A stretch of DNA of 63,257 nucleotides, filler included, from Asterionella formosa (lineage: Eukaryota): the NCBI GenBank assembly GCA_002256025.1. It is 3 parts of 3 records of this genome, joined end to end, with 100 filler letters (N's around TTAATTAATTAA, not from the genome) between each part and the next. Parts side by side here need not be neighbours in the genome. Positions count along the whole stretch, not along the records: positions 21,122 to 42,139 come from NKIB01003146.1; 2 more parts are not named here. One strand, 5' to 3'. This document shows positions 1,881 through 62,860 of the stretch, in pieces. Under the pieces are notes generated by a model, which was not told where the DNA came from, did no database searches, and was given only the letters and a program-made list of their open reading frames with translations. A program made the translations under genes and the position numbers. Every line of letters starts with the position of its first letter. Position 1 is the stretch's first letter.

Positions 1881-2464
1881 GAGACAATCTGTAAATGATG
1901 GGGCTGGTATCCTTTGAATAGTATGTCATTCGAAGTGCAAACCGGTAATATGATCTACTATGGAATGTCCGCTAATCGAGATATTTTGCTTAATCTTTGC
2001 TTAAGTGAAAACGTGTTTACCAGACCTTCCTTGAATATGTATATGTTTAGATACGGTATATTGGTTCCGGTAATGTGCTACCAGTACCTATCATTCCCTT
2101 TTATGTACCTGGTACCTGGTAGCTCCATGCGCACATACTTTTATACTCAGTATTGGTACCAGTACCAGTTACCAGTACCTGGTAGGAGTACCAGGTACCA
2201 TGCATGAGTTAGCCATCGCACGACTTGGACGAATCCAATCGAATGACTCAACAGAAAGCGCGCCAATTTCATAATCTCGCAAGCAATTATTCTTCATTTT
2301 CAATGATCGATCTTTCTTATGTACGAAACCATAAGGTACTTGTATGATGATATGCAAAGGGGTGTAGGGGTAGGGGGTATGGCAGGGGTATACCAAGCAT
2401 CATTTGAATACCGTCTCACATCTATAGTCGGCTCGTGCTTCGTTGTGTCGCAACCTTGCTGATT

Positions 2465-4384: not shown

Positions 4385-5110
4385 TTTATTAAACTACCAG
4401 ACAGTGAGTTATCAAGAAGATGCGGCAGCAAACTTATTGTCGAACTGAACAAGGAATACCGGTAGAGCTGTTGTTTCATGGGTGAAACAGATCTAATGTC
4501 GTCCCTGAAGCAAAATATACCATGTTGTATACCGGCCTGCACGTCTCTAACCAGTGGCTGTGAATAGTAGAAACAATATACGATACCATTATATAAATGA
4601 AAAGCTAAAATAATAAATATCTTTATACGGTACAACCCGGTACTCAAAATTTTATGCAACTGGAGCAGCATTTAGGACCAGCGGCACCAAGGATGGTCCG
4701 GTAAAACACGTTTTTTCCTTGAGCGAAATCGAATCGATTACCTGACCTTCCTGCCACAGGTACCTGGTACCAGACGGTGGAGTACCAGGTAGACCGAAGA
4801 GTAGCATAATGGCTATTACTCAGAGTACTTGACAGACCAGCCAGGAGCATCGCCATTTCTTGCATTACTTACCAGTTATTCCGGTACCCGAAGAGGTCTA
4901 AAACAGGGTGATAAAACTAGCATCATATCAGCTACCGGTATACTGGAGTCGAGCATTGAGCAGCACAAAGTCGTCACATGTAAGGTTTGAGATGCCTACA
5001 GTTAGTTTTAAGGAGAGGCTGGTACGCTAATTGTAAAGTATACACGTAGCGAGGGACGGCGATTATTTAACCAATGATGCATAGTCATAACTGCATTTGG
5101 ATGGAACTGC

Positions 5111-6432: not shown

Positions 6433-7764
6433 TTGTATGGAGTGCTTGAGTAAACTTCCGCACGGAGGAACCAGTGACTATGAGCAGGCTTCGAGGTGGA
6501 CGAAAATATTCAAAAATGATCGTTGGAGGAAATTCACACTGGAAGGCAGCTCTTTGTAACCAGCAGATCAATCAAATCGACTACCAGAATCTCTCTACCC
6601 GTATTTTATTGATCTGGACCTGTGTTTGAACAGAGTGGTCGCGACCTGTTCGAAGGAATAACGAAGGAAGCAACTGTTCGAAGGGATTTCACCAACAATG
6701 ATGCGCTTTGCAATGGCCAACGCCGGGTCGACACATTTGCGCCCGCCATTGATATTCTCTTTTATGTTTATTATACCAATATGAATATAATCATTTCCCT
6801 GCTCAAAAATACTACATAATATGGTTTACTAATAGTCTAAACAAAACAGTTTCGAACTACCGTTATTTACACTCTTCTTATGGACATAGTCTAGCACCAG
6901 GTCTCGGTGTAACAGTAAAACATACCAATGTTATGAACATCCATGTGCTCAAAAGCCACGAGGAATAGCATTTGCTGACTAACGGTACAGGGTGGCAGTG
7001 TGTTGTACCCCTGGAACCAGGTACCTGGTACCAGGTACCGGTCATGCGTTTATTAAATGGAATCCTAGAGTATATAATACAGTATAATCATGTACCGGCA
7101 TGTGAAAATTGCCCACCATCATTGGTATGTACCAGTATTCGTACATTTAGCAAAAATTGGAGCAAGTATACTTTTGACGTGAGGGGATGACACCGGTATG
7201 CATCAGCCAAAGCGCCTATCGTATGCTGTACAGATATGTCAAGAATATTAGCCCGAGTCACAGGGATTGTGGACTCGATTGTAATCCAACGAGTCGAATA
7301 TTGCATTGCCACGTCAATCAACAATCTAATGAGATCAAAGATTGAAGATTTCTATGGAAATGTTAAGTGGAAATTCAAAGAGAGTCTTTAAAAGATTTTG
7401 TGGGAAGCAAAGATGCATGGAAAGGAAACATTTAGTTTAGCTAATAATTTAATTTGAGTTTAGAATATCATTTGAGAACAGTGTGTTAATTGACAGGAAG
7501 GTCAATCAGTTTATCTAGCAGGGAAGCCTAGAAGCAGAGAAGAGAGAGAAAGTAAGTGGTACTAGGTAGTACTATGAGCACGTAAGAGTCTAAATGAAGA
7601 GATACCCAGGCCACTGGAAGGAGTACAGACCTTTTCAACACAGATAAAAAGCAAACAGCAAGCCCTCCAGTTTTGATGCTACCACATAACTATTTACCGG
7701 TGTGTGAGAACAAACAGGTATTTTGATGTCGTATCTTTCCATACCAACATACCGGTACCTGGTA

Positions 7765-10085
7765 CCACTTAAAAATTGTAAGCCACCATTATTTTACTCT
7801 ATCTTTCAACTAAAAATATTTATGTAATTCAACGATCAAAACTTGATGCAAGAAGTAATAAGCTTATGTTGGAAAATGCCCTCTGCTATACTATTAAGGA
7901 ATCAGTTTTGATTCAGTGTATCTAGCCATGAAGAAATGATTTTTCCAAAGTCACTAAGATTACTGCATAGCGGTGGCTTACAGTGCATATCTTTCTATCA
8001 TGTGTACATGTATATATTTTCCCCCCAAACCGTGTTTATTTTTACTCCGTTAATACTAAAAAGTTATTTTCTTATTACTTCACGTTTTACGCTTTTGCAG
8101 GGCAGCATCATCGTTGGAGAATTCTTCTGATGCATTACATTAATCTCGAGCTTCTTTGCATCCAATTACTTACTTGCGGAGTCTCAAACTTCATCACGGA
8201 ATGGTGGATCGGCAGTAGCAGTTGTAGAAGGAGAGGGAATAGCAACAGGAGGAGGTGCAGTAACAACAACCACAGCAATAGGAGGTGTATGGAGAGGGAA
8301 TGGCGGCTGCTGGTCACCATGGTGATTGGTGTTGTCGAATCTTGTAATCAGAGCTTGCCTTGTTTGTGGAACCGGCAAATCACCTGATCGTTTGTACCAA
8401 CGCGCCATTAATTTCAATTCTGGCACAGACATCTGTTCTTTTGTTTTGTTCTGTTCTTTCAATTCAAGTACTTTTCCGCGAAGTGTATTGAATTCTTGTT
8501 GCCTTTTTGTTTCTTTTGTACTACTAATGATAGTGTCTGAAATTCGCTTCCGTTCCACCAGTGTACTAGCAGCAAGAATGTTTGGCCCAAGGGCAAAGGT
8601 TTGTGCAGAGGCCAGTAGTCCTGCTGTTATCCTCTTCTTGTGTCCCTCAATGTGTAAATCCGCTGTCTCCTTTCTCTTTCTAGCTTGGGCCTCCCGGTCG
8701 ATTCCATTTCGCACATCCTTGCATTTGCAAAAACTCGTAAATTGTTCCAACAATTGTTCCAGCAAAGCCAGTTTAGAGGGTTAACTCATCAGGAGGGAGA
8801 GTGGCAGTCTCTGTGGGCGCATTGATGTTCTGTTGTGGTTGGGTTACTAGTTGAATCTCAGGGTGAAGCAAGACATTATAGTTCAGGGGATACCATCCTT
8901 GTTCATAAATTACTTTCTTGTTTGTGGCAATATTTGCAAAGGAATTGTCCCATGCCGTATTCACCAGTCCAACAATGTCGACCTTGCTAATTGTAATCTC
9001 TTGCCTGTGATATGATATGCTTTTAAGGTGAGCAATTTGCGTTTTGCTTTTGTGATGTTCATTTTGAAACAACTGTTTTGCTCAATACTGTCTCCAACCT
9101 GCCAGTAGCTTGTACCATAAGGAACACCAATACAGACTGTCCAATTGTGTACTGGGTTGTTTTATGTATTCAAGGAACAAAATGTCAAATCGAGAGCTAT
9201 GTCCATCAAGTATTAGGAATGGTGGGGGCCTGCTGTTTCGAGGAAAGATGCCAGAGTCATCCATGTGCTTTAGCATGCCAACCAGAAGCACTGCAGTGAT
9301 TGAGCCGTTTTCCGACACACAGCAGCATCTAGGCAACTGTTTCCTTCCACATCACAGACTGGTCCTTGTGGATGTCATTTTCCCTTTCCGCTATTGCCAT
9401 GTATGTTTTCATCTTCTCCTTCCCAAGCAGCAAACGGATCTAGGCCAAGCTTCTAGCTCCCTAAACACATTGTTAAGACAAATCTGAACACTGACCAACT
9501 CTTCAAGAGACAATTTCTTTCGAGGCAACAAGGCATTGCCTTGTCGAGGCGCTTTCGAGGTCATGATGTTGGTACTGTGATGGGTGATAGGTGATAAGTG
9601 ATTGTTGTGTTTGCATTTAATTTTTGTACTCATAATTCGGGCGTGCCAGGAATTCCTATTTGACGTTTTCCATTAGTGAGTTTATCTCTTTATTATGGCG
9701 CTCGAGCGAAAGCGCAATGACGTTGAAGCCATATTAAATAAATTTTAGAGGATACTAAATTAGTTTTCTAGCGGAGGAATGTTATTATAACTGTATACGT
9801 ATATAAAAAGTGATGCTTGCTCAATCGAGTAAACGTGAAAATATCCAATTTTAGCAATTTCACGTCGACAGCAAACTTTGGGGGATAATACCTAATTAAC
9901 AATGTACACAATGTAACAATACAAGAACGGAAGTATTTACTCGCTATATAAATCTGAACAACTCGTTCGTGACAATAAATAGCGTATCTTGTAAATTAAG
10001 TTCAAACCGTGCGTTTACTCTGTTTAGCGGTGGCTTACAGTTCAAAAGTCGCCGTAGCTAGCGGTGGCTTACAGTTTTTAAGTGG
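7765..10085 (-). mobile_element. Decayed pogo-like (Tc1/mariner superfamily) DNA transposon with both ends intact
   Basis: 23-bp TIRs: CCACTTAAAAATTGTAAGCCACC (7765-7787) versus the reverse complement of 10063-10085, with 1 mismatch. TA on both flanks. Internal copies of TAGCGGTGGCTTACAGT at ~7967, ~10025 and ~10059. Confidence 0.88.
8184..9633 (-). pseudogene. Fragmented DDE_1 (pogo/CENP-B-like) transposase
   Basis: Minus-strand fragments contain PFLILDGHSSRF, IGVPYGT..WQVGDS (frameshifted) and DIVGLVNTAWDNSF...GWYPLNYNVL. Several frameshifts; no intact N-terminal HTH. Confidence 0.8.
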
Positions 10086-15562: not shown

Positions 15563-16141
15563 GCTACCTTTTTTATGCCGAGAAGTGCGTATGAATGTCG
15601 ACTCGAATCATCGTCAAACGTCAATTTGTTCTTGCTTATTGTATACCGGACCGGACTTCATGTCGAGTTTGTCTCGAGTTGCTTTGCATCGTGTTTCTGT
15701 CTTATGGTCGAATGAGTCGTCTCATGGAGTCCCAGACATTTCGTACGAGGTCGTCCGCACATCTCAGCATCTTTCGTCCTAGATTTGTTACGACTGCCCT
15801 TCTAGATTACCGGTATATACATGAATATTTATAACGGTAATATCAATCCAAAAACCGGCATACCGGTATCTTACACTGTACCATTAGCACCGTGGTACCT
15901 GGTGCCCGTTACCAGGTAGGGTACCATACCACCCTGCTGGTGCTCATTAGCATGAGCACATACATATTTATATATATATACACAAATGCATCATCATAGG
16001 TGCATACATCCCCGTATAAACATTAATGCAATACCGGTATTTGCAGGACAACAAAAAGATGACACTTATTTTCTTGGATTTCGTCGCTCTCATGTCCCAG
16101 AACAGAGAAGAAGGATAGCAACTTACTTTAGTAACAAGAGA

Positions 16142-21021: not shown

Positions 21022-21121
21022 NNNNNNNNNNNNNNNNNNNNNNNNNNNNNNNNNNNNNNNNNNNNTTAATTAATTAANNNNNNNNNNNNNNNNNNNNNNN
21101 NNNNNNNNNNNNNNNNNNNNN
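21022..21121. other. Assembly gap with artificial TTAATTAATTAA spacer
   Basis: 100-nt N-run with a centred six-frame stop spacer; an identical construct lies at 42140-42239. Confidence 0.95.
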
Positions 21122-22305
21122 TCTCCAATTCCATTTTCATGATCCATTTCCATATTCCAGCGGCGAACATCCTCCAATGCATCTTGAATCAATGGTTTGT
21201 CTGGATGAAGCGGCATTTCAAAGCTATTTGAAAAGACACATCTTCATCTTTGATATCATTGTCGTCAAAGTCCACCCACGGCTGCTCTTCCGACAGAGAA
21301 TCCGCGTTCTTCTCTAGGCATGTCGTTGATCATGTAATCAATGGGATCAAAGTTGTTGACAACAAGATAGCAGCATCGCTCAAATTGCAGGAAAAACTAA
21401 CTAATTCCCAAATAGGAATGATAATATTTCATTTATAAAAGTAGTCTAATAGAAATATTTTACTTTTTTTATAATGGTTTTGTCATCTTACGTCACAGTA
21501 GATGGGTGGTTGACAGCATTTAGGATTTCCCAAAAACCGATAGCATCGTTTTTTCGTCAGTTGACCAAAACCAAAACCAATCCAAAAAAAAGTTTTTGGG
21601 TTTTGGTTTGGGTCAACGGTTAGCAACGGCATGATTTTTGACTACACAAAAAGATATACCGGTACCTGGTACCTGGTACCCTTATAATGCATGAGACGTA
21701 CCGGTACTCAATTTTGATGTATACCGGTAGTTTGGAGTAAAGATGCTGCTACCTGGTACCGGTACCTAGGTACCGGGTACCAGGTAACAGATACCAAGTG
21801 CCAGGGGAACCTGTTACCTGTATGCATCGGCGATTCGCTTCAAAACTCATTACTGTATATAATATAGTATGACGGCTGACTGCTAATACAAGGTACCAGT
21901 TCCGATTCCAGTTGCCAAGTGCGGTACCTGGTACCTGACCTGGTTACCAAGTCCAGTAACTATTTACCAATCGCTCAACTGAACACAACGTATTATACAA
22001 ACAGCTACTGGTACCAGTGTACCAGGTACCTGGTACCCTGGTTACTCACCTGTTTTATGCTCATATTCGTATGTGATAGTTTTCATATGTCGGCAGTTGT
22101 GCTTCGCCAATAGATAGAAAGTATATGTGTGTGTCACATATTATACGACCATACTAACCAGGAAATTTGTTATATATATATACGTGATCATATACCAGCT
22201 CGGAACCAAACATCGCTCAGTGGATAGAGCATGATCAGGAAAATCTATCAGGAAAAATATATATGGATATAAATTTCATTAATTTTATGTTAAAGTGAAA
22301 TCAAA

Positions 22306-29940: not shown

Positions 29941-32185
29941 TTGCAGTCCTTCCACCACCCACAGTCGTTCCTCCCACCAAACAACCCTGATCATCATTCC
30001 ATTCCAATCCATTCTGATTGAATATAATCGCCAGGATGCTCCAGCACTCTCGACTCCCTCTAGCTGAATATACGTAGCTTCTGATACGAACTCGTAGTAG
30101 AAATGTTAAGCATTGCTTGGCGGCAATATTGACATCATTGCTGTCAACGACTATACAAATCAACAAATACGATCAACAATGGCACAATACCACATCTTCA
30201 ATGAGTAGTCATTGATAAATGCATTGGTTCTTATGTAGATATATACAATCGAAACAAAAGACAGTGTGGAACAACAAACAACGATAGAAGCGATCAAAAC
30301 AAACCACGGGAGCAATCAAATCGGAAAGTCAATAAATACAATCTACATTCCACATTCAGTGTTTCACTGTTGTACTCACCGATCCGCTTCAACTAGCATA
30401 ACAAGCAGCAGACGATGGGATCAAAGAAAGAAAAACGTTGCCTATTGCAAGCCCGAATAGAGCAAAGGCAGGCAAGATAGAGTGAGAACTTTATTTGTGA
30501 GGACGAAATCGGGCATACGGTATGTAAAATCAATGAATATGTGAACGATATAAATTAACATTCAGGTCTTGTAAAAATAATACCAAATCTACAGAGATAA
30601 TATTATAACGTGTTCAAAGTAACCGTTAAAGTTAATCTTAAACCATGCATGGTTGTTTTCAGTACCACGTACGTATGTAGGCTAGATGACTACCAGTAGA
30701 ATATCCATTAAGCATCTTCACATGCATGACCGGTGCAAAAACTTGCCACCAACATCAGATGTATCGATATCATTGTTCGTCCGACGAAATATGGACGATG
30801 CGACTACATGAATCCCTCGAGAAGACAAGCAATCTAACAACCAACCACATCCGTTAGACAACGAATCGCTTCTGGCGTCATTGCGGAACTGATTTCGCTT
30901 CAAACCGGTCATGATGTACAACGATTGGCATGGTGAAAGGTGAATTGCTTGAGTCCACTTTTCAGGAGAAGAAGAAAAACGAGGTGAATTCTAGATATAA
31001 ATTATTAAAATCTGTATAGTATATAAAATAGTTTCCTTCAGTAGACCTCTTGCCGATTTCGGCAATCCCAGGGCTGGAAAACGAGGGGCAATTAGCGTCT
31101 GTTGTCTTGCCAAAATGCTAACATATAGAATTGTCAATGCATGTTCATGAACAATTGTCAACTTACACTCTCTTCACGTCGTCCCAACAAAATAAATGAA
31201 ATGTTCAAGCAGTCCTGGAGACGCAGAAACTGCTTATTGAATTTGCTATGGAGGAGATGGATCTGGAGGAATTGTGAGTTGGTGTTGTGGTTGTGGTTGT
31301 GGAGGACCATCCATGTGATTGTAAACTTTGTGTAGTTGGTGCAGTGTGATGTTAGCATATTGAAAAGGAGGATGAGAAAGATGAACTGGATGGCTGAAGT
31401 TTCAAGAAAAGGGAGATCACAATCAATATCATGATTGGAAATTTTCAGATATGCATTGACAGAGTCACTTTCAACTGTAGGGTTCAATCCAGTTAAAATG
31501 AAGAGATGACAATCAAGGTGCCTCGTCAATTGCGTGGGGTGTGGTGTGGCATTGGATTATGTTCCATTGGAAGTCCTTGTTGAAATGAATGATGTTCATC
31601 ATAATGATTCAAATGCTGGTTTGGAAATCATCAAGCTGCTGCTTTGACCACTGGAAAGAGCTAATTCGAAATTAAAGGTAGTTTGGCAGTCAAAAATGAA
31701 GCATACAAAATGAACAATATATGTTTTATATGATGGGCAATTGTAGGATTCAGTAATCCAAAAACTGAACATGTGAAATAAACAACATATGTTTTGTATG
31801 AAGGGTGATAGGCTAGTTTGTGTCCAACATACAAACTATCTATAATGTGTTTTCATTGTTAACTGGAAGGGCAATGTAGAGGCACAAAAGCACACCAATA
31901 GCTAGGTTGTGAATTGCATAGTTAAGGCCCTATTTGGGAGGAGACTGCCTACTTGTATTCTTGTGTACTCATCTTGGGAGGCCCTTGCAGGTAGACTTCT
32001 CTTAGAACTGGGGGCACCACTCATTTGGTCACCCTACTTGCACCTTGTACACAAGATTAATCACATGCAGTCTCCACCCTTGGTTGTGTGTTACCTTCAG
32101 TAGTAATAGTATTATGCTAGAGGCCACTTTTCTTTCCTTCAAATTTGATTTCACTAACTATGTCACTGATGTTCGTATTACTATG

Positions 32186-32290
32186 TAGTAGGATTGACCC
32201 CAAAGAGTCCAACACTTGGCTGGTTTGCCAGTGTGGAAACATATTGTTCCTTCTGGGAGTTCGGGCTGATCAAAAGGAATACACAAAGTC
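32186..32290 (-). repeat. Tandem duplicate of the last ~105 nt of the ProRS coding sequence
   Basis: Near-identical to 32298-32402; encodes [34 protein letters not shown]. Confidence 0.92.
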
Positions 32291-32296
32291 ATATCA

Positions 32297-35282
32297 CTAA
32301 TAGGATCGACCCCAAAGAACCCAACACTTGGCAGGTTTACCAGTGTGGAAACACATTGTTCCTTCTGGGAGTTCGGGCTGATCAAAAGGAATACACAAAG
32401 TCTTCGCTGAAACGGAAAGGGCTTCGGTGGCCTCTTCTCCTTCAATACCAGAGAGTTTCAATGATTCTTCCTTCGACTTTTCCTTTACTTCTTCTTCCTC
32501 TTCTTTGAATTCTCCTCCACACCATGGAGTCAAGACAAGATTGTTCAATTCCAAATTTGGCACAAAGTCCTTCCATTCTGTCACTTTGACCAAGTGTGCA
32601 TCACGCATTTCTTTAGCCTTCGCAAACATTGCAGCTTGGATATCCACCAACTTGGTTTGGAGAGTTCCTGCCAAACCTGCAATGGGCAAGTCAATCTTTT
32701 CTCCATTGAATCGAACCACGACACGAACAGACTGTTGTTCAATGTCACGAGGGCCAACTTCCACACGAAGTGGGACACCCTTTTGCTCCCAATGGTTGTA
32801 CTTCCATCCAGGATTGTACATTTCACGGTCATCATACTTGGCACGGATCTGTGAATGAAACGACATGAAATATTAGTCAAAGCGTAAAGATGTATATAGG
32901 GAATCCCACCAATACAAATACACAAAAACTCACTCCTACAGCTAACAAATTCTTCAAGACGGCTTCACATGTGGGATTCGCTTGCTCCATGGATAAATTC
33001 TTGCTGAGAATAGGGACAATGACAACTTGAAGTGGCGACAGCATAGGAGGCAAAACAAGCCCAGTGTCATCACCGTGCACCATAACCATTACTCCAATAG
33101 TTCTAGTCGTCAACCCCCAAGAGGTTTGCCAAGGAACTTGAGTCTTTCCTTCATGATCTTGAAATCGAATATCAAACATTTTCGCAAAGTTCTGTCCAAG
33201 GTTATGAGATGTGGCACCCTGAATGGCACGGCCTGAGGTGGGAACATAGGCTTCCACAGTTGTGGTTTGGTACCCCCCAGCAAACTTTTCCTTTTCTGTT
33301 TTGTATCCCTTAATGACTGGGACTGCCAAAAGTTCTTCATACACACGTCTGTACAATTCCAATGCTTGCATGACCATAACATCGGCATCTGCCAATGTGG
33401 CGTGTGCGGTATGACCTTCCTGCCATAAGAATTCGCGTGTTCGAAGGAAAGGTGTGGGGTCTTTGAATTCCCATCTTACTACATTGGACCATTGGTTCAA
33501 CTTGAGAGGCAAATCACGGTGACTCTTTATCCAATCAGAAAAGGCAGGATACATGATGGTTTCACTTGTGGGGCGGACGGCGATTGGTGCAGCAAGGTCA
33601 GAATCTCCTGACTTTGTTACCCACGCCACTTCAGGACTAAATCCTTCCACATGGTCCTTCTCTTTTTCCAAGCGATCCTTGGACACAAACATTGGAAAAT
33701 ACGAATTCTCCACTCCAAGAGGCTTTATCTAGAAGGAAGAGGAGAAGGAAAACAAAGTTCATTGCGTTAGAACGAGAGCCCGCCACATGGGTTTCCATAA
33801 ATATTCATACTTCTAGATTGCACATACCTCTCCATTGAACCATTCAGTGATTAATTCCCAAATTTTGTAAGACCATGGTCGTAAGATGTAACATCCTGAA
33901 ATGTCATAGTAGGAAATCATTTCCGACAACACGATGACATCCGAATACCACATTGGAAAATTGTCGGCCTTTTTCCATTGCAAGGCCAATAATGTTTCCC
34001 CTTTTTTCACCACCTTTTTGTTAGGATCCACCTTTTTGATAATAGCTTGTTTGGGCTGTTTTGGTTGCTTGTCCGAGAAACCGGATGGTTTCGTCGCTTG
34101 CTGTTGTTCCCCGTTTGTATCCATGGTTCCAGTAGCACCCGCACAAAAGTCTACCATAGTGTACGCATGGCCTGTCTTTTCAATAAACTTTTTCAATTCC
34201 GTAGGCGTCATGCACACAGACATGTCATTCCGCATGGGATGTGAATGAATATGCTCCACATTCGTAAATAAAGCTTGATCCAAAACCAATGTAATAGAAT
34301 TGGATGTATCATGAAGGATACAAAGCACCCCAACACATCCAGGTTTGACACCTCCCAAGGTTGACGCCAAGGTCTCTTCATCAGCCAATCTCATGTTCGT
34401 TTTTCCTGCTAGTCCCAAGGCCTTGCCCAAGGATTTGGTATCTAATGGTGACGACGTGGCCATAACCAATAAGAACATTCCATGTTTCTTATCCTTAAAC
34501 AGCAAATTTTTGGTATGAGTGTCGTTGGATGGAATGGGAACTGTAGTGACCAGTTCTTCAGCTGTATGACACAAGGGGTGCGAATAAACGGAATGCGGAA
34601 TATTCCATTCTCCAAGTTTGTCTAGAATGACGTTGTCTTGAATGGACAATGTCTCCAATTGAGAAGTCACTGTAGCTCCGGGAGTGCTAGTAAAATACTC
34701 TGATAAAATGGGAATGGCTTTTACCGTGTTGAACCATGTAGTAGCCCTTGGCCCAAGCTCTGTTGGAATCAACCACAAGGCAATCACAACATCACTCGTT
34801 GAAGGAACGCTTCCGCCCAAAAACGCTTGTTCGGACAAGGTAGCTTCCAACTCAGCCATGAATGTAGCCATATTGCCTAGATGTAAAAGAGAAACAAAGA
34901 GTTAGCGCCGGAGAGGGGAACGTTTTGTCCGAGTTGCGGGCATTGTAGATAGAACACAACCAGACGTACCAGGAAGTAAGGCGGGAGTCCATATCATGGC
35001 GGCACTGGCATTTCGAAGCCAAACTGCATCCGCGTCTACCCAATAGTCACTTGGCACAGCAACACAACCGCACAACGTGGAAATGGCCGAAACATAGTCG
35101 TCCTTGGACTGCACCACAGTCTGACGACCTGTCCAAACGTGAGTCGTCACCGCCGTCACTTTAACGACATCATCGTCGACCACAACAGCCACGTCCTTAA
35201 TGCCAAGGCTCTTGGCCAAGGCATTCCAAATGGTACCGGAGGATTCGGGACCTTGACAAGTCACAGCAAGCGTCGTCGTCAT
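32297..35282 (-). CDS. proS: Cytosolic prolyl-tRNA synthetase with N-terminal GST-like and YbaK/ProXp domains; exons 35282-34970, 34876-33828, 33728-32934, 32848-32297
   Basis: [82 protein letters not shown] and terminal GRSY. YbaK motif [11 protein letters not shown]. Three GT-AG introns keep the frame. Confidence 0.95.
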
Positions 35283-35289
35283 GGCACCG

Positions 35290-36300
35290 GTGGATATTGT
35301 AGACTACCGGTACTGGCACAGTACTGGTATCGATGCGGTCTAATACCGGTATGCAAAGTGGCAGTGCTTGCTCGTCGTCATCGGTTCCTCCGTTTCTGCC
35401 TCGCTGCGGCTTGGTATGATACTTTTCATACCACCCTGGGACAGATCCTACATACAGTCAAGTAAAACGTGACCGAAAGATGAACGCACATCAGTGCATA
35501 TACCGGCAGTCTAGTCTACCGGTAATCTATTTTATGCATACTAATATATCTAGTACCGGTATTTTTCGCCAGGGTACCTACGGAGTACTTGTTACTCCTG
35601 GTCCCTGTTGCTCCCTCGTAACAATCTATCTAGGGAAGTACTAGGTATGACGGAATACTACATACAAAGGTTGTCCCAGGTAGCATAACGGTTGTAGTGC
35701 CGTACTGGTACCTGGTACAAACGGCTCTCCTATTCCGGTACCAGGTATTTGCAAGTTGCGGTCATGCTACTTTCAACATTTTAATATGGGATAAAGAAAG
35801 CTAAATCGTTAGTATCAGCAACATTACCGTAACTTGGTGGTACAAACGGCTCTTCTATACCGGTACCAGGGTTTTAGGTGCAAACGGTTCTCCTAAATCG
35901 GTACCTGGTACCCTGGTACGGTACTGGTACCAGGTACTTGGTACTTGGTTTCTCGAGTGGAGTACCAGTTAGCACCAGTACCTAGACTACCGTGGTCTTT
36001 GGAAAATCAATGTTAGCAGCAATTTGCGGTCTTTAGTTTCATCAAATTTACAGCAACTTGCAGGTACCATGGTAACCAGGGTACCAGGTACCGGTACCTT
36101 GTACCTGTTACCAGCATTACAATGCGCTTCTTCTTACCGGTATATGGTGGAGTACCGACTGGTACGTGGTTGTCTCCTACGACCAGTTCCTGTCACCAGG
36201 TACCACCACGTACAGTACTCTACATATTTACCGAAAGCAGACGTTTACGGTATATTGCACACAGACACCACCTCGTACCAGGTACCAGGGTACCTGGTAG
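35290..36300. repeat. Dense GTAC / TACC(A/T)GGTA / TACCGGTA palindrome cluster in the divergent ProRS-RPS21 promoter region
   Basis: Dozens of overlapping motifs, plus three related GGTACAAACGGCT/TTCT units (~35714, ~35839, ~35877). Confidence 0.8.
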
Positions 36301-36669
36301 CTTGGTCACCACACAAACGCACTCAACAGTCAATCAGACACACGAGTAGTAAGTGGTGAGAGTTAACTGGCGGCCCATTCCTCACGACGAAACAGCTCTT
36401 TCAACAAATCCAGAAACTGCTAGGGTAAGGAATACTCATCACCATGGCCGTCCTCGTCGTTATTCTATCTATGCAGTTGTGCACAGTAGTCCCTTGAACG
36501 ATTTGTGAATGGATGAATCGAGTTGTTGATCCGAGAACAAGTAACAGGGATGCGTGGAATGCGTTGGAATTCATACTTTTGGTACTCGATATTGCAATGC
36601 CTAGGCTGGGCCAGGTGTCATCGCACTCACTCACATTTCACTCTCCACACCAACAGATACCATAAAATC

Positions 36670-36936
36670 ATGCAAAACGAACAAGGAGACAACGTGGATC
36701 TTTATGTTCCCAGAAAGTGTTCGTACACAAACCGATTGGTCAAGGCCAAGGATCATTCGTCGGTGCAAATCAATGTAGCCAATGTCGATCCCGTCACAGG
36801 AATTGCGGCCTTGGGAGACTTTACTCCCTACTGTTTGGCAGGATACATTAGATTCAAATCAGAAGGAGATATGGCATTGACGACCTTGGTTACGGAAAGA
36901 GACACTCAAATGTTGGCCGCGGCGCAAGTCGAATAA
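36670..36936 (+). CDS. RPS21: 40S ribosomal protein S21
   Basis: MQNEQGDNVDLYVPRKCSYTNRLVKAKDHSSVQIN is diagnostic. A probable 5' UTR intron spans 36425-36656 (GTAAGG...CAACAG). Confidence 0.96.
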   Translation: MQNEQGDNVDLYVPRKCSYTNRLVKAKDHSSVQINVANVDPVTGIAALGDFTPYCLAGYIRFKSEGDMALTTLVTERDTQMLAAAQVE

Positions 36937-39900
36937 ACTATAGAGTACTACTTACCGGTATACTAGTTTCTATCTGGGCAAGCTAGCTGTAACACACAGT
37001 TGCTCCTGTTTGTTTGGTTCACAAGATCATAGTCAACTGGTATGTAGTTGCTACCCTGGCATACTGGCACCATAACATTACAGGTAGGCAGTTGATTATC
37101 CATACTGGTTTATGGACGGATGGTGTGGAATGAGGTGGAATGAAGCATGTTGAGAGGAGAACCATTCCTTGCTCTACAAAAATGTGCAAATGCATACATG
37201 CTTGAAGCAATGATACACACCCAAGATGGCACTGGTACCAGGGTATCATGCCTGCAGGTACACATGATGTTCTACCTAGTAAACGAGAAGTGAGTGATGT
37301 ACATAGCCACCAAGAGGAAGGATAATAAGTTTGAGGCAATTCACAAACAAGCTATCTTTCACTTGCCTAATATTGTAAATGGTCCACATGTCCATCCATT
37401 ATCACCTTCTGGTTGAAATAACTTGGAATCATGTTCAGTGGCCATCATGACCAGCAATGATGCTTTGGTGCCAGTATAATATGATTCATGTACACATATT
37501 CCTTCTGAACATCTTTGTGAAAGAAAACTTGCAGTGGAGCATATCATTTCCCTACTCAAGTCGCATCCAGGGATGATGCAGTACTTATGGGCAAGGTGGA
37601 ATACTTGACCAATATGATCCTCTACACACACACCTTCTTATCCTGGCTGGATCCTGGATTTGACATAATCCATCATTTTTAGCAAAATAATGATGCCCAA
37701 AATGATTGTTTCTATCACTTGATCTTATGCAGTAGACAATAATCACATAGTTACTATCATGATGAATTGGATGACAACTGCTGTAGATTTGGAAAACATT
37801 AATGATGTCAATCTTGATGATCTGGAATGGGGGCGGGGGGGGGAATTTGGTTGTGAAACTTTTCAGCCATCTCTACTTCATCAGTTATGTCTCCCAAATT
37901 TCCGGTATTTTCATTCATTGAATGAACTTGTTCATAAAATGAATGAATTTCACTGAGTTCTTCAATATTATCAGCGATGTCAGGAGAAGGAGTAAAATAC
38001 AATAACTGAAGTGACTATGTAGGAATAGACTCTTCATCAGTGAGGAAAAAATGTTTTGGTTTCACCTTCAAAAGCAATCTTTCTTTCTTTTGTATTTTTC
38101 CTGCTATTGAATCAGCATGCTTCGTTCTTTTCTCTGGAGAATTATAAAGCTGTTCAAAATCATTTTATCTATGTGTGAACACAAATGATTTCACTACTGA
38201 TCTCATTAGTTTTTCATTTTCTTTTCAGAATACACAATGTTGTGTAGTGTAAAAGCTGGAAGTTTCTCCCGTTTCCTTGATTGATCATTTCCGTTCAATG
38301 CCATTTTGGGATTTGACAAAGAACCAGAAGGGTGCAATATGAAGAAGTGATTGGTCAATGTGCTTGTGGTGGTACAACTGCACGCAAATAATGGTTGAAC
38401 AAGTAGTATGGCTGCACGCAATTCTTACCAATTAAAATAATTGTTGAACAGTAGCAACGATTAATGGGCTGATGGTTTATGCTGAAGGCACATTGCGTAC
38501 ATACATACATACTATAATGCAAATGGAACATGCAAAAATAAATGAATCCAACATTTATGATCAATTGATCATATTTGTATGATCATGTGATCGCATGTTT
38601 ATAACTATTTAATCCTATTCTGGTACCATACTTTCATTTTGAAATCACCATACTTTCATCACAAAAACATCGTACTTTTTATGAAATGTTATTACATTTC
38701 TATAATCAATTAATTATATATTCAATTATCATACTCTATTACGATGCTATCATTCTTTCTATAAAATGTTATCATATTTTTATGATCAATTTATCATATA
38801 TTCAATAATTATATTTTATTTCAATGGCATCGTTCTTTTTTGTAGAATGCAATCATATTTCTATGATCAATTTATCATATATTCAATATTTATTTGGGAT
38901 AGTATCCCGGTTTTGCTTATACCAGGAGAATAATTCCAAAGAGGACAGTGTCTATACAGTCTACACTTCAGTGCAACACACAGTTCTATGCACGAAGATG
39001 CGGAGGATACAGAGATTTCCAGCAGCAATCCAAGATAATCATAATCACTCCCTTTATTGATAGTACCATCTATAAGGCAGATTCAACAATGACAAGAGGA
39101 GCAGAAGACAACAACATCCCATTTATGACAGCAAACCACGAAGAATAAGATTGCAATAACAAGGGATCGGTCAAGAAGACTGAAAGCGAGCATTGTGCTG
39201 CAGCCAAAGAACAAATTAGATACAATGCATATATTGATTGAATATGTATAGTCAACAAGGTTAATATTTAATTTACGATGATAATTACTGTACCTAAAAG
39301 ATGATTTATTATAAAAAAAATTGATCCGATGATCATCATCGAAGGATGCATCATATGAATATGATGTTTTCTATTTGCAGACGAACTATGGTCATAACAT
39401 TCATGACACCAGTCTTGTTTTTGTTCTTGGGTGCAATGTTCTTTTTCTTTTTCCTTGTTTCAAATGTGACCAATTCATCATCATGCCCTAACAATGATTT
39501 TGTATCACCATCTATTACCATTGTCTCATCATCTGCTAATTTTGTCTTTGCCATCTGCTAATTCCAACATCTCAATAAAACTTTTTATAAACTTGGAATT
39601 CAGTCGCTTACATTGCAAGCGATTGACGACTATATATAAATCAAGAATTGTAGTATTGGACCAAGAATAAAACCTTATAGTATATTTAAGTATGCTCTAC
39701 TATATACTATTGATTTGTTGATGTAATTCCATTACCATCAATAGGAAATAGCGCAAGTCATAATTTTCGAGTCGATTTTTCGTGTTGAAGCTAGTAGAAC
39801 CATCATCGATGTTAATGTAAATCACTAAATATACTAAAAGAAATGAGAATTGAGTCTATTAACGGTTATACAATGTTGTAATATATAGTATAGACTGCAT

Positions 39901-42139: not shown

Positions 42140-42239
42140 NNNNNNNNNNNNNNNNNNNNNNNNNNNNNNNNNNNNNNNNNNNNTTAATTAATTAANNNNN
42201 NNNNNNNNNNNNNNNNNNNNNNNNNNNNNNNNNNNNNNN
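42140..42239. other. Assembly gap with artificial TTAATTAATTAA spacer
   Basis: Same construct as 21022-21121. Confidence 0.95.
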
Positions 42240-54357: not shown

Positions 54358-54678
54358 TCGACATTACAGTATGTAGGTTTAATAATACTACGGTACATGC
54401 ACAAAGGTATACATAAAAGGCAGTACCCAGTACCGGAGACAGGTATAACGATACCTGGTACCAGGCAGTACATAATCTTGGTTCCTGGAAGGTCCAGCAA
54501 TCAGTGCACATGGCGTGCAGGTTGCTCGTTTTCTGTTCATCGATTCACAAATGAGAAAAAAGCAGGGGTATACCTCAAAAATTGTCGAGCCCCTAAATTT
54601 TGCGCCACTCTGTTATTCTTTAAATAGTTGTTTACATAGACGTTAAGCCGTTAATCGTTTTATTGTGAAAATGAACTT

Positions 54679-54882
54679 CAAGTCAGCAGTCAGTAAGTTA
54701 AAGCCAGCAGTCAGTAAGTTAAAGTCAGCAGTCAGTAAGTTAAAGTCAGCAGTCAGTAAGTTAAAGTCAGCAGTCAGTAAGTTAAAGTCAGCAGTCAGTA
54801 AGTGGAAGTCAGCAGTCAGCGATTTTTTCAAATTTTCAGCGAATCAAGTCAGCAGTCAGTAGTTAGCAAGTTGAAGTCAGCA
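54679..54882 (+). repeat. 21-bp minisatellite AAGTCAGCAGTCAGTAAGTTA (~6.5 units plus degenerate copies)
   Basis: Directly visible; related GCAGTCAGC units recur at 55164-55262. Confidence 0.92.
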
Positions 54883-56429
54883 TTTTTACGATAGTACCGG
54901 TACATAGTGGCAGCAATATCACGAAGTAGAAAGCAATGATTTTTTAAGGCATCGATGTCGATTTCACAATTTGGTACGTCAATGTTAATCCCGATAGTAT
55001 AGTATGAATGTCGAAGGCATCGCTTTTAGTATCCCAAAAACAAAAAGATGCATTTCCATCATTATATAAATATGAAAAGTAGACGCAATTTGTACACCAG
55101 TACCGGTAGTTGGTCTCTTCCTATGAACAAAGTAGCTTGCTTGACGTCAGCATGTTGACGATAGCAGTCAGCAGTCAGCGAATATTTCAAATCTTCAGCA
55201 AATCAAGTAAGCAGTTAGCAACAAGAAGTCCGCAGTCAGCAAGTTGAAATTGGTAGTCAGCGATTCTGCTGTGAAAGGTGGCAGTGCTTTTCCGTTTCAA
55301 ACTTTATAACAGTTACAGGTAGTAGGAATACATGTAAATATCTTGAGATTTTTCATCATTTCGGAATTGGTGAGCCGGTCAGACTTCCAATGAAGTTGGT
55401 TGAAATCGCTACGTGGAATTCTCAGTATATAGTGCGCGCAATTCGCTGATTACCGGACCTTCTTGGTAGTGCTCAAATTTTTAGTCGAAAAATCTGCTTT
55501 TCAAAAATTTGCATTGTAAGGGCCCGCTGCATTATTCATATTCTGATTGGTTATTCTTACATCCGTTCGAATAGCCCGGTTTGCGAGGCTTTGCAATCCC
55601 ACGCCCGCCACACTGGATACACATGCAACATTTTCTTGGGTGTTGGCCGATGCGATATCCACGACCTGGTACCAGGTACCGGTAGCTGATCATCATTGGT
55701 CATAGTACCGGTTGTGTACGAGTACCAGTACATCTCTCCTACATAACTGCACTTTAAAATATTTTCCGAGATGCTGGGTGATACATGTGACACATTGTTG
55801 TTCATCTGAGCATGATGCCGCTACCAGTACCATGACTCTATGTACATCCAGCAACGAAGAGTCTATTTATGTGTATTTCAGGGCATACTATGAGAAGGAA
55901 TCTATGTATGCACTCGCAAATTTTCACTGATTTAAATATTTCAAACAGAATCATCGAAGTTCAAAATGAGTGCATAAAAGTTCTTAGTTCCAGGGAATTT
56001 CGGGAACCTAGGGGTTCAAATGCAGGAACCTTAGAAGACTCCAATGTAAGTTGCCGCATCACTACACCTATTCTGATTGGTTGAATTTAATTTACTCACC
56101 TGCTCCAGATTGGCTGAAGTATTCCGTTCTTGTCAAATCACGCCAGCCAAACTTGAACCACATGTATTAGATATACTGTATACCGGTAGGAAAAATTAGT
56201 AATACGGTACCTGGTACCAGTCGTTTCATCCTGTCTTCCATCACTACCATTCCAATGATGACGTTTCGTCGATTAGTGATTCTGATTCCGATTCTTTGGA
56301 GACTGTAGAAAAGGCCGATTTTGTCGAATTTTTTTGGACGACATTAGCTCAATGCCGGCTGGGTCTGAAGGCGATTTCAATACATAGGTAACTTTCAAAT
56401 AGCATCAATATATAATTTCCTGCGAGAAA

Positions 56430-56533
56430 CTGCAGAAAGGAACTTCGGTTTTTTACTATGCTAAAAAGACTGGAAGATTCGGGGGGAAATCTGTTTATTT
56501 GGTATAGTAAAAAACCGAAGTTCCTTTCTGCAG
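56430..56533. repeat. Hairpin with perfect 30-bp arms
   Basis: CTGCAGAAAGGAACTTCGGTTTTTTACTAT (56430-56459) is the exact reverse complement of 56504-56533. Confidence 0.92.
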
Positions 56534-56766
56534 ATCCTATATCCTGACAATATATAGAGTGGACCTACACCCCTACTTGTCCGAAGACTGTATTTAAGCA
56601 TATGGCAAGGGTGTCTAATGGTGAAAGCTCCGTAGAACGTTATACATATCTAATTTATACGTGAAAAGTACGTTTTTGATTAGTCTGACTCAATATTTGT
56701 TTTTAAACCCTACCTCGAGCTAGGGGTTCAAATGCAGGAACCTGAAGGTTGCGGCCTCGCAGTTAT

Positions 56767-58033
56767 ACATTGCGAGGTCTGTTTTTCTCCAAAATAATTT
56801 TATGAAGTACCTTAATCCTCACCGTACGTACAACAAAATAAAATAGTTAAAGGTAAAATTAGCTTTCACCAATATGACCACTTTGCACATGACAAAGAGG
56901 GATTGATAAATGCTGTTAAAGCATCTGTTGGTGTCTGTAGAGAGGACAGGGCTACTGTAACCCCCATAGCAACAGTTTAAACTACTAAACTAGTGTCGAG
57001 AGGAGTTCAAGCACACTAGACTACATATTTGCACGTGATTCTACCGTGTTAAATATTTAGCTAGTACATCTACTGTGCTTTTATTTGTTTCTATTTCTCC
57101 CGTAGTGCGCCCATAGTGCGTGGTAGCTACTTGGCGAATTGGCAAGGATTCTAGGATTCCCGAAAATGGACGCTTTTGCGGAAACGACCATAACTTTAAA
57201 AATGTGCAATCTTTTTTAAAATGGAAAAAAGTTTTAGATGTTTTAAGGGTCAGCTATCAATTCCGCACTTTAAAATGGAGGGCACACGATTTTTCGCCCC
57301 AAGAGTGTGTCGAACTGGTCAGGTCAACTCTACCGGTAGTACTGGTACTGTTTTTACCAACCACCAGTATTCAGGACATCTAGCTAATACATGTGGTTCA
57401 AGTGTGGCTGGCATGATTTTACAAGACCAGGATACTTAAGTGAATCTGGAGCAGGTGAGTAAATTCAATTCAACAAATCAGAATGTGTGTACTAGTGATG
57501 CGGGAACTTACACTGGAGTCTTTTTGGATTGAGAATTATTCAGCAAAACATACCTACGCAAGACTCTTAGTATACGAGAGCGTTTTTGCACGTTCAAATT
57601 CTGATTCCAATATTTTGGCTACTGTTGAAAAAGCTGATAGGGTCAACTTTTTGGAGGAGGATTATTCTACATCTATGGGGCTTCATAAAGAATAAAGTAG
57701 ATAGCCATGTACCCTATAATGTCAGGAGTTAACTTCTGTAGAGAAGTGGCAGTTATCCCTCGTAGATTTTTTGAAAAGCTTCGTAGCCCCTTTTTTGGGG
57801 ATAGTTACGATTCCAAGAGGGATAACTGCATTTTCTCTCCAGAAATGGGGTCCTTACCATATCTGTATATTGATCATACCCCTAAGTTGACCAATGACTG
57901 TATCTAAGCATATGCAAAGTGGTCGTATTGGCGAAAGCTAATTTTACCTTCAACTATTTTATTTTGTTGCACATACTGTGTGGATTAAGGTACATCATAA
58001 AATTATTTTGGGAAGAAACGGACCTCGCATTGT
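56767..58033. mobile_element. Non-autonomous element bounded by ~125-bp imperfect inverted repeats (56767-56891 / 57909-58033)
   Basis: The arms align by eye over their whole length (e.g. CCAAAATAATTTTATGAxGTACCTTAATCC). No transposase inside; no target-site duplication identified. Confidence 0.7.
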
Positions 58034-58403
58034 GTTAGGTAATCATCGTGATAATATTTATTTACACACCTCATCGAATTGTGGGTGCGATAAATCACAC
58101 GTTAGCATGATACGCGCAAATACATGGGCGGTATAGCACGTATAACGTGTTATTGTGTACAGCATACCAGTAAATGCATTATGTAAATGGACTACTTACC
58201 TAGACTAACACATTGCCGCGATTTCAAATCTGTAGTAAACATCGTTCACATTTTTCCGTACCAGGGTACCAGGTACAGTACCTGGCAGGTGGCTGAGGTT
58301 GTTTGATTCCATGTCTGTATATATATACCGGTATATATGTGTGATGTAGAACAAAATCGAATACCTTTTTCATGGCGAAGGCATCTTGAAGACTCCAACA
58401 AAA

Positions 58404-62455: not shown

Positions 62456-62860
62456 CGTCGTGCCGCTATCCTCCTGTTACAGTCGGTGGGAGGTGGAAGA
62501 GCGAAGGAAAGGAAAACACAAGGAATCACGGTCCAGATAATTGATTGTGAATTGTACGCAATGAAGCACCAGCGGTAACCGTAAATGCGTTGCGTTTTAG
62601 CTATTTTTCTTTTCGCACTGTGCTTTGTTTTAAACATACATACCGGCAAGGGTATATATACTGGTATATCAACAGCTCAACAGCCACAACTGAGGCTGGC
62701 ACAGCGCGCTCGTCTGCAGTCATACCGATATGCATTCCTCAGGTACGAAGTAACTGAACAGTACCTGGAAGGGGAAATTCGTACCAGAGCATACTGGGGA
62801 AAACGAGAAGTTTAGCATTGTTTTTCTTTTAGCGGCTGTCTTTACACTGGTACTCCATCA

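Follow-up and report, generated by a model that had tools for sequence, protein, structure and literature searches.

TA-framed words upstream of Asterionella formosa genes as probable excision footprints of TA-targeting transposons

The divergent promoter between the genes for prolyl-tRNA synthetase (ProRS) and RPS21 in the diatom Asterionella formosa is crowded with short words framed by TA, among them TACCGGTA and TACCWGGTA, raising the question of what produced them. An initial annotation had offered two readings, a promoter or open-chromatin signature and the traces of some process striking accessible DNA again and again. The present analysis supports the latter and allows the process to be named: with a probability of about 0.78, higher for TACCGGTA and lower for TACCWGGTA, TA-targeting transposons of the IS630-Tc1-mariner superfamily left the words behind as excision footprints that have accumulated. 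The window, meaning the whole stretch of 63,257 nucleotides analysed, strings together three separate contigs through N linkers at 21022-21121 and 42140-42239, containing TTAATTAATTAA; contig adjacency across these linkers is meaningless. The stretch is present in runs from freshwater, in keeping with a freshwater diatom.

The ProRS/RPS21 patch and the distribution of its words

The first coding stretch of ProRS (34902..35282, minus strand, from the ORF list, with the tRNA_edit domain in the next exon) appears from its sequence to start at the ATG at 35282-35280, and RPS21 is encoded on the plus strand at 36670..36936 (Pfam PF01249, E 5e-32). Between them lies the footprint patch at 35305..36299, which ends about 370 bp before the RPS21 ATG (36670). 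A likely intron with GT...AG borders, predicted from sequence only, occupies 36425-36656 in the RPS21 5' untranslated region. Just after the ProRS stop, at ~32190-32410, about 112 bp of the 3' end of that gene recur as a degenerate tandem duplicate, where one contig of public run X6 skips 112 bp.

The patch holds 31 motifs (counted over 35290-36300), against a mean of 1.4 and a maximum of 6 in 300 dinucleotide shuffles, the comparison used for every patch. Nineteen of its units collapse to TA (shuffle mean 0.3, maximum 2), comprising 7 CCGG, 7 CCWGG, 3 CTGG and 2 CCAGGG/CCCTGG. It also contains two plus-strand copies of an 88-bp MITE with the terminal inverted repeat (TIR) CAAGTTGCGG: copy 1 at 35752..35836 (85 bp) has a decayed CWG duplication (TTG/GTG), and copy 2 at 36020..36060 (41 bp) is internally deleted and has CAG on both sides. 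Copy 1 is flanked by a 33-bp local direct repeat of 94% identity (35713..35745, plus strand, and 35838-35870), with a degenerate third copy near 35878-35909.

An assembly artefact was excluded, as contigs from independent public runs carry the patch. The X2 contig, spanning 32373-35804, differs by 4 substitutions and a 10-nt insertion, and the X16 contig, spanning 35687-35949, by 2 substitutions; no second allele of the region was found elsewhere in the assembly. At the polymorphic site 35573..35583, the window reads TA-CC-TA and the contigs of three of the four runs (X2, X6 and X12) read TA-CCAGG-TA-CCAGG-TA, 10 nt longer, the site lying outside the coverage of X16; this length difference (at 35578) compares alleles and implies no direction of change. 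Between 35557 and 37089, 4 of 16 non-repeat strain SNPs fall inside words, about the expected rate, although the low depth of the contigs makes this weak evidence.

Genome-wide, TACCGGTA occurs 28,528 times in 68 Mb (68.4 Mb), against 1,718 for the control, each word read backwards, and TACCWGGTA occurs 26,886 times, against 902, excesses of 17-fold and 30-fold. Within the window, the motif patches listed in the initial annotation were recovered, 11 of the 12 with p<=0.01 by shuffling; the CK1 patch at 62640-62795 is present, with a single full motif and p 0.04. These unstranded patches, delimited by motif positions and shuffles, include the TLDc/CENP-X divergent region (2052..2199, genes named by domain search; 9 motifs in 2080-2200 against a shuffle mean of 0.3), the DNA 5' of a membrane-protein gene (7020..7137), the gap between divergent AAA-ATPase and kinase genes of the ORF list (15808..15925), the DNA 5' of a repeat-rich secreted protein gene (21657..22037; 25 motifs in 21655-22040 against 0.9) and a small patch 5' of a WD40 gene identified by domain search (58259..58333). 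A further patch, 4759..4940, lies 5' of a gene which we take to be ERGIC3-like, following the earlier naming. The ProRS/RPS21 patch had been called the densest; it is instead the largest, four other patches having 6.5-8.7 motifs per 100 bp and this one 3.1, so that the peak of density next to the ribosomal protein gene does not hold per base.

The position of the words relative to genes was examined in a non-random sample of 628 kb, consisting of the whole window and ten contigs from element searches, with our own rough coding models. In this sample the proposed upstream enrichment holds: the DNA 100-1,000 bp upstream of genes (58.3 kb) contains 163 TACCWGGTA and 168 TACCGGTA, or 2.8-2.9 per kb for both words, and the DNA 100-1,000 bp downstream (36.6 kb) contains 8 and 22, or 0.2 and 0.6 per kb. 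Coding DNA (186 kb) has 0 TACCWGGTA and 6 TACCGGTA, repeats (129 kb) have 22 and 24, and divergent gaps hold 92 words in 17.8 kb, compared with 5 in 9.0 kb of convergent gaps. Transposon ends share this orientation when pooled, 30 of 34 facing gene starts against 80 of 121 control TA (p 0.01) among the flanks with a gene call, most flanks (76) having none. By element, gene 5' ends are faced by 8 of 9 ends of family A and 6 of 8 of family B, both described below, and by 16 of 17 MITE ends; without the MITE, families A and B show a bias that is non-significant (14 of 17, p 0.27). Open chromatin is the presumed reason for this upstream location, elements elsewhere having probably been silenced.

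Insertion at TA and the matching transposon families

Parsing the words as TA-spacer-TA reveals a restricted grammar. The spacers CCWGG (296, 10 expected), CCGG (331, 17 expected), CCAG/CTGG (182, 42 expected) and CCAGGG/CCCTGG (39, 2 expected) exceed expectation, CCTG/CAGG reaches 52 (24 expected), CCATGG was seen once, and CCTGGG/CCCAGG is absent from the count. Chains are single units in 461 of 532 cases. Where CCWGG units adjoin, their W letters are the same (direct) in 31 pairs and opposite (inverted) in 28, and this independence between neighbours argues that units were mostly added singly. The preference for a neighbouring G is retained at unchained TACCWGGTA (64% versus 23%), which places the preference before the arrays.

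Comparison of repeat copies captured the words as insertions. A paralog could be aligned at 34 TACCGGTA sites. At 16 of these the paralog lacks exactly 6 nt, and in 11 cases we read the shorter copy as a clean single TA, counting one pair a single time; the paralog is equal in length at 10 sites and differs in some other way at 8. Repeat copies are distinguished by 33 unique 6-nt indels, of which 7 convert TA to TACCGGTA and 2 involve CCAG/CTGG, and two more conversions of TA to TACCGGTA separate near-relative contigs that are 97-99% identical. Such insertions occur also inside dead transposons and without an adjacent repeat. Because TACCWGGTA is rare in repeats, there is little empty-site evidence for it: of 7 testable sites, 2 have a paralog 7 nt shorter, 1 of them clean, and CCAGG accounts for 1 of 31 7-nt indels between repeat copies. 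No locus with both an element allele and a footprint allele was found among the loci compared, with reads compared over 31800-37600.

Both words have counterparts in the tips of resident TA-targeting elements, from which the spacers can be composed: family A ends in CCA...TGG, its TIRs beginning CCAC, and family B in CCG...CGG, its ends reading TA and then CCGT. The broken family A transposon at 7765..10085 (minus strand, TIR CCACTTAAAAAYTGTAAGCCACC, delimited from sequence and copies) has TA on both sides and sits in a footprint array with the reconstructed empty site GTACCTGG-TA-CCTGGTA, so that the patches reported at transposon borders do include real insertion sites. Family A has 201 exact end matches genome-wide, and its 61 unique flanks carry TA in 55, GTA in 49, GGTA in 37 and CCWGGTA in 21. 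TIRs and a TA duplication are thus present (TA at 55 of 61 flanks), and a 4-bp GTAC reading also fits; the boundary may fall between TA and CCAC or between GTAC and CAC, duplicating TA or GTAC with the same outcome. GG precedes 8% of all TA. It precedes TA at 32 of 47 family A ends, matching TACCWGGTA (355 of 592 sides, p 0.35) and unlike TACCGGTA (93 of 662, p 2e-15), and flank positions -1 to -5 match between family A and TACCWGGTA likewise. Family B shows the reverse, with GG at 3 of 34 ends, matching TACCGGTA (Fisher p 0.61) and unlike TACCWGGTA (p 2e-9); it takes loose targets, as does TACCGGTA.

Family B, with 109 end matches, copies 99-100% identical and an open DDE_1 frame, is a young pogo (Pfam DDE_1 E 7e-22, TIRs, TA duplication). 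Family A is older, its copies being about 90-95% alike and its short derivatives 84-97%, and its protein could not be placed by Pfam, PDB sequence or pairwise searches. The structure model of an intact relative (pLDDT 87.6) has a predicted mariner fold with an N-terminal HTH; a structure search matched it to Mos1 (E 4e-4), and Z scores were 12.5 for SETMAR and Mos1, 11.1 for Sleeping Beauty and 6.0 for the CENP-B HTH. On this model, family A is predicted to be a DDE/D transposase of mariner fold in the IS630-Tc1-mariner superfamily. By our own count, 37 residues separate the second and third D (DD37D-type, where pogo has DD35D); one of 62 members matches Pfam DDE_1 (E 0.019), and the family A-family B profile match is non-significant, with aligned D...D motifs. 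DDE_3 had no match in the genome in a search that leaves its absence unproven. Of the candidates scored, 233 are related to the family A transposase; Pfam annotation is lacking among the 120 matches listed, and the named relatives come from a diatom. Its modelled fold puts family A in a clade of IS630-Tc1-mariner elements that has no name as yet and is marked by a DD37D-type motif, with a putative mariner-fold transposase and an unusual G+C target.

Words with four-letter CCAG/CTGG spacers, TACCAGTA and TACTGGTA, have intermediate flanks (GG 0.29-0.32). CpG decay as their sole origin was partly rejected: a strain SNP at 35557 changes TACCGGTA to TACTGGTA, and a second, diatom-like set of loci described below holds 104 TACCAGTA/TACTGGTA but only 14 TACCGGTA, which suggests that decay and another route both contribute. 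A TACCAGTA at 30691..30698 lies inside a repeat, and comparison of repeat copies found a paralog 6 nt shorter.

Several other elements and insertions were observed. The 2.3-kb pogo element L132 has CAG tips, and the TA-CWG-TA scar expected of it is enriched just 1.4-fold. On C12713, at about 32215-36092, a 3.9-kb inverted pair ends in TA followed by CCTGGAAGG and TA followed by CCAGGAAGG (CCWGGAAGG ends); it is possibly another CWG-duplicating element, and no clear transposase frame was found in it. In the window, two elements are interleaved at 56035-57522 and 56767-58033, their long inverted arms at the termini measuring 111 and 125 bp, and a 21-bp tandem array at 54653-54841 lies immediately past an LTR retrotransposon. 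TA-duplicating insertions of other kinds were counted in repeat copies of L001-L070 and L167 and in the sample. With slippage set aside, every 3-nt case (18 of 18) yields TACTA/TAGTA, with C or G in the middle, and 5 cases yield TAGCTA; these insertions are probably scars of further transposon families.

A proposed route from excision to promoter arrays, and its alternatives

The mechanism proposed here is inferred from known Tc1/mariner chemistry, which for Sleeping Beauty includes excision overhangs of 2-3 nt and a C(A/T)GTA footprint, according to the available part of the report (PMC3878927). Transposons of the IS630-Tc1-mariner superfamily duplicate TA at insertion and on excision would leave short (2-3 nt) 3' tip overhangs on the donor. 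With family B, two C-G pairs would hold the CCG overhangs together, so that nearly any TA could become TA-CCGG-TA. The CCA overhangs of family A would join over an A:A mismatch, giving TA-CCAGG-TA or TA-CCTGG-TA evenly at random or, with a longer (two-base) overlap, TA-CCAG/CTGG-TA and never CCTG/CAGG, and such a model fits the spacer counts. Family A prefers G-TA-C and GG-TA-CC, and a scar at GG-TA-CC would read GG-TA-CCWGG-TA-CC, turning one target into two; because the scar would recreate the GGTACC target, arrays could feed themselves, repeated cycles leading to (TACCWGG)n. As both families would land mostly upstream of genes, scars would gather in promoters, where slippage would later gain or lose some array units; the 88-bp MITE takes finished TACCWGGTA as its own target. 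The scar makers would be families A and B or their ancestors, and the overhang lengths and repair chemistry are those presumed for such elements. CCAGGG/CCCTGG and the near-missing full product CCATGG find no simple fit to a 3-nt overhang; the former may need an extra slip or a longer overhang. Weighing against footprints, a very high turnover is needed for a few hundred element ends to account for about 55,000 scars, and the flank match could partly reflect family A targeting arrays of other origin.

It is unlikely that the words are instead selected sites of a general promoter factor, at which transposons merely land. Such a factor would explain the strong upstream bias and has a parallel in oomycetes: in the accessible parts of the reports, TACCGGTA (M94) and TACATGTA (M93) are high-confidence promoter motifs of P. 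infestans (PMC3597505), the latter also known in Phytophthora as motif-1/M93/AM-20 (PMC3520976, PMC3597505, PMC11134190) and bound by PsMyb37 (PMC11134190). The words nevertheless arise all at once, a plain TA gaining 6 nt, in dead transposons as well as elsewhere, the differing flanks of the two words match two transposon families, the distance to the gene is spread over 100-1,000 bp rather than fixed, and, more weakly, strain SNPs strike words at about the expected rate. The promoter signature suggested in the initial annotation is right as regards location and hypothetical as regards function, which the scars may have acquired later. Slippage or hairpin copying of self-complementary heptamers, building the arrays as microsatellites without any transposon, is very unlikely to be the whole origin. 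Identical arrays do occur in high-GC, bacteria-like metagenome contigs, the second diatom-like set has 64 direct against 45 inverted pairs, and near relatives differ by gains and losses of 7-nt units within arrays, one such duplication involving a non-footprint unit, so slippage also edits arrays by adding or removing some units. Slippage could not, however, seed the many single units, W is random between neighbours, unlike in the bacteria-like arrays (p 6e-7), and TA becomes TACCGGTA without an adjacent repeat, new units at a solitary TA having been seen for this word.

Two further sources have little probability. The common TACTA/TAGTA and TAGCTA insertions would favour a host enzyme or other nuclease, distinct from these transposases, that fills TA breaks in open chromatin with short templated stretches, yet each main word fits the tips and the target profile of a resident family, which makes this origin highly improbable. 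The 88-bp MITE, read as TA, CCWG...CWGG and TA, has word-like tips, 655 end matches genome-wide and two copies inside the patch. It carries the same top-strand CWG on both sides in 15 of 23 copies (CTG 11, CAG 4), never CTG on one side and CAG on the other, the remaining 8 differing by decay, and both W letters occur within one MITE orientation. The shared CWG argues that the MITE inserts into a pre-existing TACCWGG(TA) with a 3-bp CWG duplication, and its use of ready-made TACCWGGTA largely refutes it as the scar source, a role that has scarcely any likelihood left. The scar expected of the MITE itself with the duplication kept, TAC-CWG-CWG-GTA, occurs 109 times versus 13, in the direct form in 37 of the first 50 matches listed. 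No autonomous partner, which in NuwaI/PHIS would bring DDE and Myb/SANT genes, was found, the longer TIR pairs L146 and L147 being without a transposase frame. NuwaI transposons of the PHIS superfamily, reported mainly from animals, likewise duplicate CWG in the available part of their description (PMC4482050); the MITE differs in having no autonomous partner found, and an assignment to PHIS is not implied.

Precedents, consequences and related arrays

The excision-footprint interpretation agrees with Tc1/mariner footprints as available sections of the literature describe them (PMC3878927, PMC7913693) in the doubled TA, the element tips between, the central A/T ambiguity and end joining. Those footprints are 2-4 bp long (PMC3878927, PMC7913693), and the present ones differ in their 5-bp spacer, their about 55,000 copies concentrated upstream of genes, and a scar that would rebuild its target and build arrays. 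ZB, for which footprints are reported, has AT-rich targets, in contrast to the G-TA-C and GG-TA-CC seen here (PMC7913693, as far as available). The palindromes of Phytophthora are alike in being TA-xx-xx-TA words abundant in stramenopile promoters, TACCGGTA being identical; in the accessible accounts they are described as transcription-factor sites, whereas the diatom shows insertion alleles and matching elements. Seidl et al. likened taCATGta to a Tc1 footprint and rejected this origin on conservation and abundance, according to the part available (PMC3520976); abundance, in the light of the present results, does not exclude a footprint origin. The PsMyb37 and Phytophthora findings make a regulatory role possible in the diatom and raise the reverse question, that of a footprint origin, in Phytophthora. 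No paper dealing with these words in diatoms, or with footprints accumulated there in large numbers, was found within a search whose coverage excluded most subscription journals. Excision footprints are a known kind of event; no published match was found for their number here, their concentration in promoters, the proposed regeneration of the target or the secondary parasite.

Footprints are usually held to be rare and invisible; as footprints, these words would be among the commonest in the genome, forming a finely spaced record of past transposition, and probably of promoter DNA that is open, in an unannotated diatom. A target-regenerating scar would offer a slippage-free route to tandem repeats, motif finders will label the words promoter elements, and the recruitment of scars as regulatory sites becomes directly testable. 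A broader and more doubtful proposal, which we advance tentatively, is that a target-rebuilding scar acts as a self-amplifying microsatellite in the majority of promoters in two or more lineages of diatoms, that a second element targets the scars, and that scars are a source of real stramenopile promoter motifs, including the Myb-bound oomycete TACATGTA/TACCGGTA sites.

A metagenome scan found at least 123 loci with arrays. The second diatom-like set comprises 33 of these metagenome loci, picked by contig label and low G+C and selected for arrays, without a match to the 628-kb sample and with diatom-like genes in the one locus checked. Its spacers are CCWGG 313, CCAG/CTGG 104, CCTG/CAGG 5, CCAGGG/CCCTGG 22, CCTGGG 0 and CCGG 14, which, read from the words alone, suggests a family A signature without family B; the family A element itself was not found in these loci.

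Other metagenome loci of high GC, including L183, L260, L270 and L282, carry homogeneous (GGTACCW)n arrays beside bacterial genes, which are presumably heptamer tandem repeats of bacteria. They share the (GGTACCW)n letters with the diatom arrays and differ in having few dispersed single words and homogeneous units, with 84 direct and 10 inverted W pairs (p 6e-7 against the diatom arrays), a ratio that is what slippage looks like.
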